Positions 39,001-42,000 of a stretch of DNA of 64,000 bases are shown here, piece by piece. The position numbers were made by a program. Numbering within the stretch: the first letter of the stretch is position 1; each line of letters opens with the position of its first letter. The DNA is from Escherichia coli. GTDB lineage: Bacteria; Pseudomonadota; Gammaproteobacteria; Enterobacterales; Enterobacteriaceae. Location of the stretch: assembly GCF_030013205.1 (NCBI RefSeq), contig NZ_CP122648.1. One strand, written 5' to 3'.

Positions 39001-42000
39001 GATTCGCCAGCAAGGCACTCAGCCAGTCGTCCACTTTCTGCAATTCAGCCACGTTTCACCGTCCATATTTCTTCAGGTTCATCGGGTTCCGCTACAGCTT
39101 CAACACTAGACACACTGCCGTCAGTGCTGACCAGCACACGCTCCGTCAGTTGCAGGTTAAGGCTGATATCACAGACATCGTTGCGCAAAATATCCACCTC
39201 AAAGGTGAATAACTTTTCCCGTAACAGAGTTAATGCTGCTGATAGCATCACGACGGCCTGCACTGGTTTTTACATCTCCAGAAACCGCACCTGCCGCGAC
39301 ACGACCTATCTCTGCAGTTGCACTCATGACGTAATGCGGTAGTTTCTCTTTTGCCACCTCATTAATCGGAACACATGGCAGACAATGAATCTGTGCCAGA
39401 AAACCATCTACCAGCGTTGAATCTTCAGTCAGATCGGTAAGCAACCAAATTTCTGGTGCGGTTAATAAATGAGGTTGAGCTGGGTTCAGTTTGTTCCGCA
39501 GAATCTGCACATTCATGCCTGCACGTTCTGCCAGTTGCACCAGATTGTGGCGCAGTGCGAATGCACGACAGGCTTCATCAAAATGTGGATGTTTGGAAAC
39601 TTGGTAATCAAACATGGTCAATGCCTCTGATGTATTTCAGAATCGAACTAATTAAGGTTTAGATTGCATTCTGAAAGCGCATCAACGGTCATGGCGGCTA
39701 TGTTGATCATCACTTTTTCGCGTTTTTTATCTTTGCGCAAACGGTGACGGATAAGGCGTCCATCAGCCAACATGTCATTGATGGTATCGATGGACAGCCC
39801 TGTCAGCTCGCTATAGCGTTCAATAGTCACATGAGGCGTGGTAAGAGTGATTGAAATGTTAGGTCTCATGATGCAACATTCCTCGTTTAATGATGATTAA
39901 TCAGGACGAATACGGATCGTTTGTATTTTGTGAACACCATAAACATACGATCGCACAGTGAAATCGTCAAGGCAAAAGTTCACTTGGAGTGACCATGAAT
40001 TTGGAGAAAGGCGGACGAGGCGCTATAGAGCGCATGGTAGAAGCTTATGGATTCAAGACTCGACAGGCGTTGTGCGATCATTTAGGAATCTCTAAAAGTA
40101 CACTCGCCACACGTTACATGCGTGACTCATTCCCCGCAGAATGGGTAATCCAGTGCGCCCTTGAAACGGGCACCTCGCTTAATTGGCTCACAACCGGGCA
40201 TGGTTCAAAGCAAACTTCAGGTAATACAAATACTATGGAAGTTGCTAAATATGTATTATCTGATGGGGCCTTGTGTGAAGACGGTTTTTATATTTTCGAT
40301 AGGGAATTTCTACCGTCGGCATTCAAGAATCTTTTTGTAATCACAGATAATAATTCTGAATTTATTTGTGATAAGGAATTTGATGATATACGTGATGGTA
40401 AATGGGTAATAAGTATTGATGGCGAAATAACGATCCGTGACATTACTCGTTTACCCGGTGGAAGAATCTTCGTCGAGGGTGGAAACAGAGCCTTCGAATG
40501 CAAGATAGAAGACATTGAAATAATTGGTAAAATTATAAGTTTAACAGTCAAGTATGTTAAATAGTACCGGGAGGAAACTATGCTTGGTAAGGTATTTTTT
40601 GTGGTTTTGTCATGTTCTTTGTTATTAAACCCACTAACTACCTATGCTAGAAATTATCCCTGTTCAGGGAAAAAGGGAGGTGTTTCTCACTGTACCTCAG
40701 ATGGCAAATTCGTTTGCAATGATGGAACTATTAGTAAATCCAAAAAAATCTGTACTAAAAACTCACGATAACTTTTGCTTTTATATCTGCGCCTAAAATA
40801 AAAATGAGCCGCAGGTTAACCGCAAAAGTTACATGCTCACATAGCAAAAAGAATAGCCAACTTAATTATGGCTTCAGTGAGATGTATGGTCGTAGGATTT
40901 CATACATTGACACTGGTTATACATACAGTGAAAATGCTCTCTACTGGAGGGCATTTTTTATGGCAGTACGAAAACTCACCACAGGGAAATGGCTTTGCGA
41001 ATGTTACCCCGCCGGACGTAATGGGCGTCGTGTGCGTAAACAATTCGCCACCAAAGGCGAAGCACTGGCCTTCGAGCGATACACCATGGGGGAAATAGAA
41101 GCAAAGCCCTGGCTGGGCGAATCAGTGGATCGTCGGACACTGAAAGATATGGTTGAGCTATGGTTCAAATTACATGGCAAATCTCTTACTGCCGGACAGA
41201 ATGTCTACAACAAGCTGCTGTTGATGGTTGACGCCTTGGGAAATCCCCTTGCAACTGATCTCACCTCAAAAATGTTTGCTCACTATCGCGATAAACGCCT
41301 TACTGGTGAAATCTACTTCAGTGAAAAATGGAAGAAAGGAGCAAGCCCAGTTACTGTTAACCTGGAGCAAAGCCATCTAAGCAGCGTTTTCAGAGAACTT
41401 TCCCGCCTGGGTGAATGGACACTTCCAAACCCATTAGAGAAGATGCGCAAATTCACTATCGCAGAAAAGGAAATGGCATGGCTTACACATGAGCAGATTA
41501 TCGAATTACTGTCTGACTGCAAACGTCAGAACCCAATTCTGGCACTGGTAGTCAAGATATGCCTAAGCACAGGCGCACGCTGGCGAGAAGCAATAAATCT
41601 TACCCGCTCACAGGTGACCAAATACCGAATTACCTTTGTAAGAACGAAGGGGAAGAAAAACAGGAGCATCCCTATCAGTAAAGAGCTTTACGAAGAGATC
41701 ATGGCGCTTGATGGGTTCAATTTCTTTACAGACTGCTATTTTCAATTTTTATCCGTGATGGAAAAAACGTCTATCGTGCTCCCTCGCGGTCAACTGACAC
41801 ACGTTCTGCGCCATACGTTTGCGGCGCATTTCATGATGTCGGGTGGAAATATCCTTGCTTTGCAAAAAATCCTCGGACATCACGATATAAAAATGACTAT
41901 GCGTTACGCACATCTGGCACCGGATCATCTGGAAACGGCGCTCCGTTTCAATCCTCTGGCAACGCTGCCAAGTGGCGACAAAGTGGCGGCAGCGGTTGGC

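Follow-up and report, generated by a model that had tools for sequence, protein, structure and literature searches.

The 64,000-nt stretch of Escherichia coli DNA analysed here (the window) holds an 11.8-kb prophage remnant (30305–42113), attached at the 3′ end of rybB in the interval from ybjL to rcdA, with the RybB gene overlapping the attachment repeat (Table 1). This site has already been published as an insertion point for P2-like prophages (PMC3032704). Intact within the remnant are cI, an apl-like gene, the entire cI–apl intergenic region, int and both copies of the attachment repeat; gone are the LexA-controlled Tum-like operon and the replication, capsid and lysis genes, some 18 kb having been lost from the middle of the prophage. 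The tail and late genes left behind are P2-like in profile searches. The original prediction placed a cI-like repressor opposite apl- and cII-like genes in a remnant prophage, arranged as in phage 186, and this holds: all three genes are present, cI on the plus strand and the other two on the minus strand, in 186 order and orientation. The small YdcA-family gene downstream probably shares a transcript with cI and int.

Table 1 Coordinates of the lysogeny switch, the deletion junction and the surrounding remnant
Feature	Position	Strand	Basis
rybB sRNA gene; 3′ end is the prophage attachment site	30240..30318	+	Rfam RF00110, 104 bits, full length
Left att copy, GTGGGTTTTTTGTTGCCTAAAATTTAT, ogr-side end of remnant	30305..30331	.	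27-bp direct repeat with 42087–42113, 25/27 identical
ogr/B-type late activator gene, far end of remnant	30396..30614	-	RefSeq annotation of identical K_EC180 sequence
FRG-domain accessory gene, S–V gap of tail cluster	37653..38588	+	Pfam FRG E 2e-19; PADLOC PDC-S15 candidate defence family E 8.5e-32
gpS/186 O homologue (tail completion), first intact gene past junction	38603..39052	-	PF05069 E 3e-39; 46% identity to 186 O
gpR/186 N homologue, 3′ fragment; N-terminal ~85 codons deleted	39045..39225	-	PF06891, profile positions 86–133 only
Truncated cII, 138 codons (130–132 native, 6–8 foreign)	39199..39615	-	PF06892 E 1e-40
Deletion junction 39225/39226, 2-bp AC microhomology	39224..39226	.	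Three-way alignment with intact prophage L004
CII half-sites ATGTTTG/CAAACAT at cII start (pE activator site)	39590..39615	.	Sequence and spacing as in 186
Apl/Cox-family excisionase-repressor gene, 73 aa, intact	39648..39869	-	phrog_575 E 6e-31
Candidate pL, TTGAAA-17-CAACAT, towards cI; overlaps apl start codon	39851..39879	+	By eye, at 186 pL position
Candidate CI operator, 38-bp imperfect palindrome GATCGTTTGTAT ... ATACGATC, over pR -10 and start	39915..39952	.	Inverted repeat; putative function
pR-like early lytic promoter, TTGACG-17-TATGTT, into apl and truncated cII	39942..39970	-	Consensus scan; position as 186 pR beside cI start
cI immunity repressor gene, 189 aa, uninterrupted	39995..40564	+	Pfam, 186 CI alignment, PDB profile match
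YdcA-family small secreted-protein gene, 15 nt 3′ of cI	40580..40771	+	NCBIfam NF007463 E 5e-34; phrog_6000
Tyrosine integrase, intact	40960..42012	+	PF24624 and PF00589; 55% identity to 186 Int
Right att copy, int-side end of remnant, adjoins rcdA	42087..42113	.	Direct repeat of left copy

The cI product (mechanical open reading frame start GTG 39989) comprises an amino-terminal helix-turn-helix domain (PF07022, E 2.8e-33, residues 11–74, 114 bits against a cutoff of 22) and a carboxy-terminal oligomerization domain (PF16452, E 2.7e-27, residues 85–183). It aligns collinearly with 186 CI along its whole length (33% identity over 175 aa). Among solved structures it matches that of 186 CI (2FJR, E 2.6e-31, residues 10–183) and, through its carboxy-terminal domain, one of that domain alone (2FKD, E 2e-14); it falls with 186 CI in phrog_4 and phrog_34054. 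No CI in the deposited phage collection searched exceeds 56% identity to it. The identical protein (WP_001047320.1) is encoded by apparently complete prophages in strains 13E0767 and M7424; the window gene differs from that of 13E0767 by six synonymous and no nonsynonymous changes, and the M7424 DNA is 100% identical across cI and the switch, including promoter and ribosome-binding regions. The YdcA-like protein, too, matches apparently complete prophages elsewhere. Because the same CI occurs in apparently complete prophages, cI is judged by alignment to carry no inactivating lesion, a defect for which the original prediction had allowed. A 186-type CI would also be expected to assemble into a higher-order, wheel-like 14-mer and to be inactivated by a Tum antirepressor, for which the evidence, the Tum-like operon of intact relatives, is indirect.

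The first gene read from the pR-like promoter belongs to the Apl/Cox family. Its product matches phrog_575 ('Cox-like excisionase and repressor') over the full length, and 186 Apl has the same best PHROG (E 3e-9); a Pfam search with the window protein gave no match, and direct alignment with Apl is weak (40% identity over 20 aa). The apparently complete 13E0767 and M7424 prophages encode an identical protein, the window gene differing from that of 13E0767 at four synonymous and no nonsynonymous positions.

The deletion has clipped cII, as foreseen in the original prediction of an altered carboxy terminus. Full-length cII has 169 codons; the window copy is cut after codon 130–132 and reads on, in a different frame, into the 3′-terminal 180 nt of the gpR homologue, adding 6–8 foreign residues before a stop. 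Up to the cut, the protein is 72% identical to 186 CII residues 1–130 without gaps. The gpR fragment, also aligned to an intact R gene, is 48% identical to 186 N residues 86–135. By comparison with intact relatives, the window has lost cII codons ~131–169 at one end of the deletion and the 5′ part of R at the other, together with fil, the early genes, A, cos, the Tum-like SOS operon and the genes for capsid and lysis. RefSeq annotation of matching genomes agrees, listing CI, a CII pseudogene ('missing C-terminus') and a tail protein pseudogene ('missing N-terminus'). In 186, a CII 1–135 fragment is reported to be transcriptionally inactive and CII 1–145 active (PMC7708051); the window protein keeps fewer native residues than the inactive fragment and so is most likely dead, by analogy. 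Its target is preserved: comparing the annotated 186 CII site (ATGTTTGATTTTCAGGTTTCCAAACATC) with that of the window (ATGTTTGATTACCAAGTTTCCAAACATC) shows conserved half-sites.

Between cI and apl, the pR-like promoter is the sole sigma-70-like match of a consensus scan across 39150–40100. The pL candidate was not reported by that scan and is for this reason inferred; its sequence block is unchanged in seven switch regions, heteroimmune ones included. The best operator candidate is the palindrome overlapping pR. Its 12-bp arm motif is confined to 39915–39952 within the 64-kb window at up to two mismatches, save for weak, chance-like matches, and the arms are kept in MFDS1001074 although the switch there diverges by 12%. 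Three TTCAC/GTGAA half-sites lie within 39930–39983. The 186 operator ATTCAC-N5-GTGAAT, its shorter form TTCAC-N5-GTGAA and the 186 pR, FL, FR and pB site sequences are all absent from the window. A search of the window with half-site motifs from the pR palindrome found no convincing second site of FL/FR or pB type. It also drew attention to a 9-mer (TGTGCGATC) that recurs within cI at 40071–40079 and once elsewhere in the window. A 9-nt inverted repeat at the FR-equivalent position (39635–43/39668–76) was discarded, being not above chance by rough estimate and poorly conserved.

These comparisons qualify the label '186-type'. It stands for family and architecture and fails for specificity: aligned to the 186 proteins, CII is close, CI is distant, Apl is weak and the 186 operators are missing. 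With CI at 33% identity and no 186 operator, the window repressor is predicted to be heteroimmune to 186, and homo-immunity with that phage is ruled out. Immunity against phages of its own group is plausible from sequence. Among relatives, the DNA-binding domain of CI varies in step with the switch: CI codons 1–62 of MFDS1001074 differ from the window at 32 nt but no amino acids and its switch is similar, whereas GPEC389 differs at 13 of 62 amino acids and its switch cannot be aligned. The immunity group is found in 529 of 5,426 complete E. coli genomes when cI plus switch is required and in 647 of 5,426 by cI alone, roughly 10–12%. An intact relative, L004, carries a Tum-like operon with a LexA box, whose protein is 40% identical to the carboxy-terminal half of Tum. 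The locus was also compared with P2 Hy dis, whose immunity is classically traced to E. coli B, and a connection was dismissed: the P2 Hy dis repressor is of the P2 C type (PMC1904268). The locus thus defines an uncharacterized 186-family immunity group that is nonetheless very common in E. coli chromosomes, the laboratory B/BL21 lineage included, so the predicted immunity is easily tested. It opens no new mechanism, and its practical value is modest.

In 186, pL-driven expression of cI requires only CI and the pR/pL region, and the window holds both. By analogy, CI would be made from a weak pL facing a strong early pR about 50 bp away and would bind operators over pR, with the 39915–39952 palindrome the best candidate. 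Binding should switch off transcription of apl and the truncated cII and free pL from interference. A phage entering the cell would have its own pR repressed by this CI, provided that it belonged to the same immunity group. Since the antirepressor operon has been deleted, an SOS response would not be expected to lift this repression. The clipped CII would most likely contribute nothing, even with the pE target site in place.

Only 14 genomes carry the junction; all come from swine and are 100% identical there, which marks the deletion as recent. These genomes differ in further deletions of tail genes. The left part of the window remnant lacks an extra 3.6 kb of tail sequence relative to P15-25, a loss common to genomes of the K_EC180 and ETEC4067 type, and sheath, tube, E and tape-measure genes are gone. 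In the clone mate K_EC180, a 1-nt deletion in a G4 run frameshifts cI; if real, it implies that CI is dispensable in the remnant. In a sister swine clade (EC556), a truncated A gene is fused to R, and in E. coli B a different deletion fuses cII codon 93 to a truncated A gene; both keep cI and apl. The swine genomes form a series, from complete prophage through the EC556 and P15-25 types to the window type, that offers a clean natural time-course of decay.

The original prediction offered immunity as a plausible reason for the survival of the region; the data do not show this. Few clonal genomes, ongoing tail deletions and one frameshifted cI mean that survival needs no selective explanation. 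It is best explained, with no demonstrated selection, by the youth of the deletion and the position of the region beside int and the attachment site. The independent deletions that spare cI and apl in E. coli B and EC556 could reflect selection rather than chance. A domesticated module, with cI and the switch held by selection as a non-inducible shield against very common homo-immune phages, would fit the survival of int–cI–apl through loss of lytic genes in three or more deletion patterns (that of the window, that of EC556 and that of E. coli B), the existence of apparently complete homo-immune prophages with an identical switch and the wide distribution of the group. We nevertheless regard it as unlikely. 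Selection after the deletion cannot be read from the window-type junction, which arose once in a clonal lineage and shows zero divergence; the low dN/dS of cI is a record of its history in functional phages; the K_EC180 gene is frameshifted; and the window and EC556 types may be successive stages of a single decay rather than independent events. Setting genomes with the cII 5′ part (1,282) against those with its 3′ end (934), to gauge how often cII is truncated, yields no usable frequency, the 120-nt query being far less sensitive. More doubtful still is the convergent form of this idea, in which separate deletions in the swine O139/ETEC clade and in E. coli B, each removing lytic genes and the SOS antirepressor, clipping cII and sparing int–cI–apl, produced a permanently 'on', non-inducible immunity locus kept by selection against this widespread prophage group.

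Two further accounts dispense with immunity. CI might be kept to silence residual functions, namely excision by Apl plus Int, ogr-driven tail expression and, in less-decayed relatives, Fil, so that lineages losing cI first were removed. EC556-type relatives do retain fil and early genes 3′ of pR, overexpressed Fil blocks cell division according to the 186 annotation, and the window keeps pR reading into apl, the truncated cII and S, together with an intact int, both attachment copies and ogr. But the window lacks fil and the replication and lysis genes, and its tail set is broken (I frameshifted, R and D truncated, sheath, tube and tape-measure genes deleted); derepression should therefore cost little, at worst excision of the remnant, and we hold this account highly improbable. 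The broken I, R and D genes, the deleted sheath, tube, E and tape-measure genes and the missing lysis genes likewise led to rejection of a domesticated, tailocin-like tail cluster that pR would have come to drive once the deletion had occurred. The switch could also be silent junk, with cI intact for lack of time and no useful level of expression. The lineage is clonal and recent and its members are still decaying, perhaps in cI itself; yet promoter, ribosome-binding region and coding sequence match the apparently complete M7424 prophage exactly, and everything that 186 needs to express cI from pL is there, which makes silence quite unlikely. On balance, we think it probable that 39199–40564 once served a 186-family prophage integrated at rybB as its lysogeny switch and was retained after a recent internal deletion of ~18 kb in one swine E. 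coli lineage. The remnant as a whole is ordinary decay of a common 186/P2-family prophage in a pig-associated lineage.

Among known systems, the closest in design is 186 (Eganvirus). Shared with it are the divergent order int–cI/apl–cII beside the attachment site, a two-domain CI, the Apl PHROG, a CII of 72% identity with half-sites of the same sequence and spacing, a pR-like promoter abutting the cI start opposite a candidate pL block at the apl start and, in intact relatives of the window element, a LexA-boxed Tum-like operon. The window differs in its divergent CI and missing A-type operator, in an Apl of 73 rather than 87 aa that barely aligns, in the YdcA-like gene between cI and int, in its location at rybB rather than tRNA-Ile, and in the truncation of cII and the loss of fil, the Tum module and all else as far as gpR. 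In the P2-type switch (P2, W-phi and P2 Hy dis), too, the early and lysogenic promoters converge, and a small Cox/Apl-type protein serves as both excisionase and repressor. P2 C, however, is a 99-aa single-domain repressor (phrog_147) that binds direct repeats, the window repressor lies outside the P2 C family, and P2 has neither cII/pE nor an SOS antirepressor.

The 'Rybb' P2-like prophages described at rybB are Rybb*B (E. coli B, with retron Ec86), Rybb*W and Rybb*Cr (Archer et al. 2011, PMC3032704). The E. coli B element departs from the window in the join of cII codon 93 to a 5′-truncated A gene, in its retained portal, terminase and part of the capsid and lysis region, and in its cargo, a retron and DUF6216 in place of FRG. 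Like the window element it is defective, one end of its deletion lying inside cII, and it shares both insertion site and immunity type: its Apl is identical, its CI differs by 3 aa and its switch by 2 of 125 nt.

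The arrangement put forward in the original prediction, a rightward cI diverging from leftward apl- and cII-like genes within 39199–40564, was recovered with all three ORFs in place (see table). The genes are already annotated in RefSeq, and both the prophage family and its insertion site have been described in the literature. The repressor aligns with 186 CI along its full length (33% identity) and matches the solved 186 CI structure (2FJR, E 3e-31). Inactivating lesions in cI had been named as grounds for rejecting the prediction; alignment revealed none, and CI and the Apl-like protein share their RefSeq accessions with those of apparently complete prophages in 13E0767 and M7424. 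Relative to 13E0767, cI carries six synonymous and no nonsynonymous differences and the apl-like gene four and none; across the switch and cI, the DNA of M7424 matches the window at 100%. By these comparisons the window cI is undamaged. In K_EC180, a clone mate, a G3 run replaces the G4 at 40265–40268, and RefSeq calls its cI frameshifted; the other genomes carrying the junction have the window's cI, save one substitution in ETEC1748. These two changes are either assembly errors or the earliest signs of cI decay.

Coordinates of the switch genes and of neighbouring features
Feature	Position	Strand	Match or context
cII'	39199–39615	–	PF06892
apl-like, 73 aa	39648–39869	–	phrog_575 'Cox-like excisionase and repressor', E 6e-31
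cI	39995–40564	+	PF07022, E 3e-33; PF16452, E 3e-27 (the 186 CI family's two Pfam domains)
YdcA-family secreted protein, 63 aa	40580–40771	+	between cI and int
FRG-domain gene	37653–38588	+	within the S–V interval of the tail genes; PADLOC candidate defence family PDC-S15, E 8.5e-32
Acyltransferase-family gene	31946–33001	+	opposite strand, between tail-fibre assembly gene and (originally) sheath gene
RelE/ParE-type toxin gene plus HTH antitoxin gene	53591–54296	+	inserted between rimO and dgcI

The predicted alteration of the cII C terminus at the deletion junction was likewise borne out. The truncated product, CII', is 72% identical to residues 1–130 of 186 CII, gap-free. In an alignment with the intact 13E0767 prophage, the breakpoint falls at 39225|39226 and shows 2 bp of AC microhomology. 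To its right, cII continues through codon 130 (codons 131–132 are by chance preserved as protein); to its left lie the last 180 nt of the tail-completion gene (gpR, 186 N) in a different frame, so that CII' stops after 6–8 foreign residues. Missing relative to complete relatives are the cII 3' end, fil, early genes, a Dam-like methylase gene, A, a LexA-boxed Tum-like operon, accessory genes, cos, portal/terminase/capsid genes, lysis genes and the 5' part of R. The 1–145 truncation of 186 CII is stable and fully active, and the natural proteolysis product 1–135 is described as inactive (PMC7708051). CII', of which 130–132 residues are native, should lack activity by analogy with this 72%-identical homologue. 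The cII 5' part was found in 1282 genomes and the 3' end in 934, using queries that differ in sensitivity.

The remnant spans 11.8 kb (30305–42113), bounded by a 27-bp direct repeat whose copies are 25/27 identical. The right copy (42087–42113) adjoins rcdA; the left (to 30331) coincides in part with the terminator of the sRNA gene rybB, and full-length RybB runs from 30240 into this copy (Rfam, 104 bits). The prophage is thus integrated at the rybB 3' end, with no tRNA involved at the insertion site. The same site is used by P2-like prophages of the E. coli strains W, B and Crooks (PMC3032704). What remains alongside the switch is int, the YdcA-like small gene, S, the FRG-domain gene, V, W, J, a frameshifted I, H, G, the acyltransferase gene, a truncated D and ogr. 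The left part has lost a further 3.6 kb (sheath, tube, E and tape measure), a deletion shared with K_EC180 and several ETEC genomes. Reading the window as strain P15-25 throughout fails, the match holding only right of ~35.7 kb.

The designation '186-type immunity region' holds for family and architecture but not for specificity. Neither the A-type 186 operators ATTCAC-N5-GTGAAT (of FL, FR and pB) nor those of pR are present; TTCAC-N5-GTGAA has zero occurrences across the whole window, and a CI search of the phage collection returned no record more than 56% identical. Immunity is plausible but would be directed at the element's own immunity group, which is heteroimmune to 186, and the interpretation is partly supported: 186 family, cI intact, cII broken. 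cI occurs in 647 of 5426 complete E. coli genomes, in 529 together with the switch.

Comparison with two relatives shows CI to be mosaic, with one module in codons 1–62 and another in codons 63–189. Against MFDS1001074, 32/186 nucleotides but 0/62 amino acids differ in the first (17% nucleotide divergence), 57/127 amino acids differ in the C-terminal domain, and the switch is still 88% identical. In GPEC389 the C-terminal part is almost the same, but 13/62 N-terminal amino acids differ and the switch is essentially unalignable. The DNA-binding half and the switch behave as a single module, as expected of a working repressor–operator pair; this covariation is a product of selection in live phages, not in the window's remnant. 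Specificity in oligomerisation or towards an antirepressor could underlie the C-terminal variation.

Why the switch survives can be weighed against related deletions. The junction is found at 100% identity in 14 genomes, every one from swine (O139:H1, porcine ETEC), and is a single recent event within one clone, whose members vary by additional tail deletions. The sister clade EC556/571/581 carries this prophage too (the proteins and the I frameshift agree, and cI is 100% identical), with cII and fil intact and a different deletion that fuses A' to R. More of R is retained there, so a second, nested deletion could have produced the window type. In E. coli B/BL21, where this immunity type occupies the same site, an independent deletion has fused cII codon 93 with a truncated A gene. 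The defective rybB prophage there (C2566, L007 9253–16691) carries a retron annotated 'St85 family', which is Ec86 (PMC3032704). In ZYB62 (NZ_CP074366.1 near 3172491), cII directly abuts 'late control protein D', yet another deletion ending in cII.

The window, EC556-clade and E. coli B deletions show that int–cI–apl outlasted several separate events. Three explanations fit such retention: immunity may be selected for, cI may be needed as long as toxic genes (fil, for example) persist, or the genes may be spared by their location at the element's edge. As no obviously harmful gene is left under pR in the window, cI now looks dispensable there.

The S–V gap looks like a variable cargo slot: it holds an AAA ATPase plus HNH endonuclease in M7424 (L011 1216–2780) and a DUF6216 gene in E. 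coli B (L007 3270–4076), and is empty in 13E0767. The cI–int gap is a second such slot, probably co-transcribed with cI in lysogens; relatives carry a 558-aa 'chromosome segregation ATPase', P-loop/KAP NTPases or a second, 307-aa CI-annotated protein (L002 5362–7038; L009 2213–3350; L010 2246–3685). The acyltransferase-family gene, at the position of P2 Z/fun, matched nothing in PHROG or PADLOC and may be a lysogenic-conversion gene. Outside the remnant, the RelE/ParE–HTH pair occurs in M7424 as well as the swine lineage; 13E0767 and E. coli B lack it at this position.

The predicted layout of the switch parallels that of 186. TTGACG-17-TATGTT (minus strand, 39970..39942), the sole sigma-70-like site in 39150–40100, adjoins the cI start, is directed into apl and occupies exactly the position of 186 pR. 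TTGAAA-17-CAACAT (plus strand, 39851–39879), around the apl start codon and invariant even in heteroimmune relatives, is a by-eye candidate pL at the position of 186 pL. The inferred starts would face each other ~50 bp apart; those of 186 are separated by 62 bp. The best candidate operator is a 38-bp imperfect palindrome over the pR -10 and start (39915–39952), whose 12-bp arms are kept in MFDS1001074. TTCAC/GTGAA pentamers form a cluster of three at 39930–39983 (~0.1 expected by chance, a rough estimate). GATC(G)C within the pR spacer (39949–39954) is present in 7/7 switch regions compared, two of them heteroimmune (aligned positions in L008 and L002) with otherwise unalignable flanks; these phages encode DNA adenine methylase, and the motif may be a Dam-sensitive promoter element. 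At the cII start, the half-sites of the annotated 186 CII site recur with the same sequence and spacing.

In 13E0767 (L004 15430–15500), a perfect LexA box, CTGT-N8-ACAG (TACTGTAAATATAAACAGT), precedes an operon of a 62-aa ORF and a DinI-like protein that aligns at 40% identity with the C-terminal half of the 186 antirepressor Tum; in this phage group the antirepressor is apparently split over two genes. As the operon falls within the interval deleted from the window, any CI-mediated repression here should be SOS-insensitive. The 73-aa Apl-like protein has no Pfam match; its best PHROG is also that of 186 Apl, unlike P2 Cox, which belongs to phrog_272.
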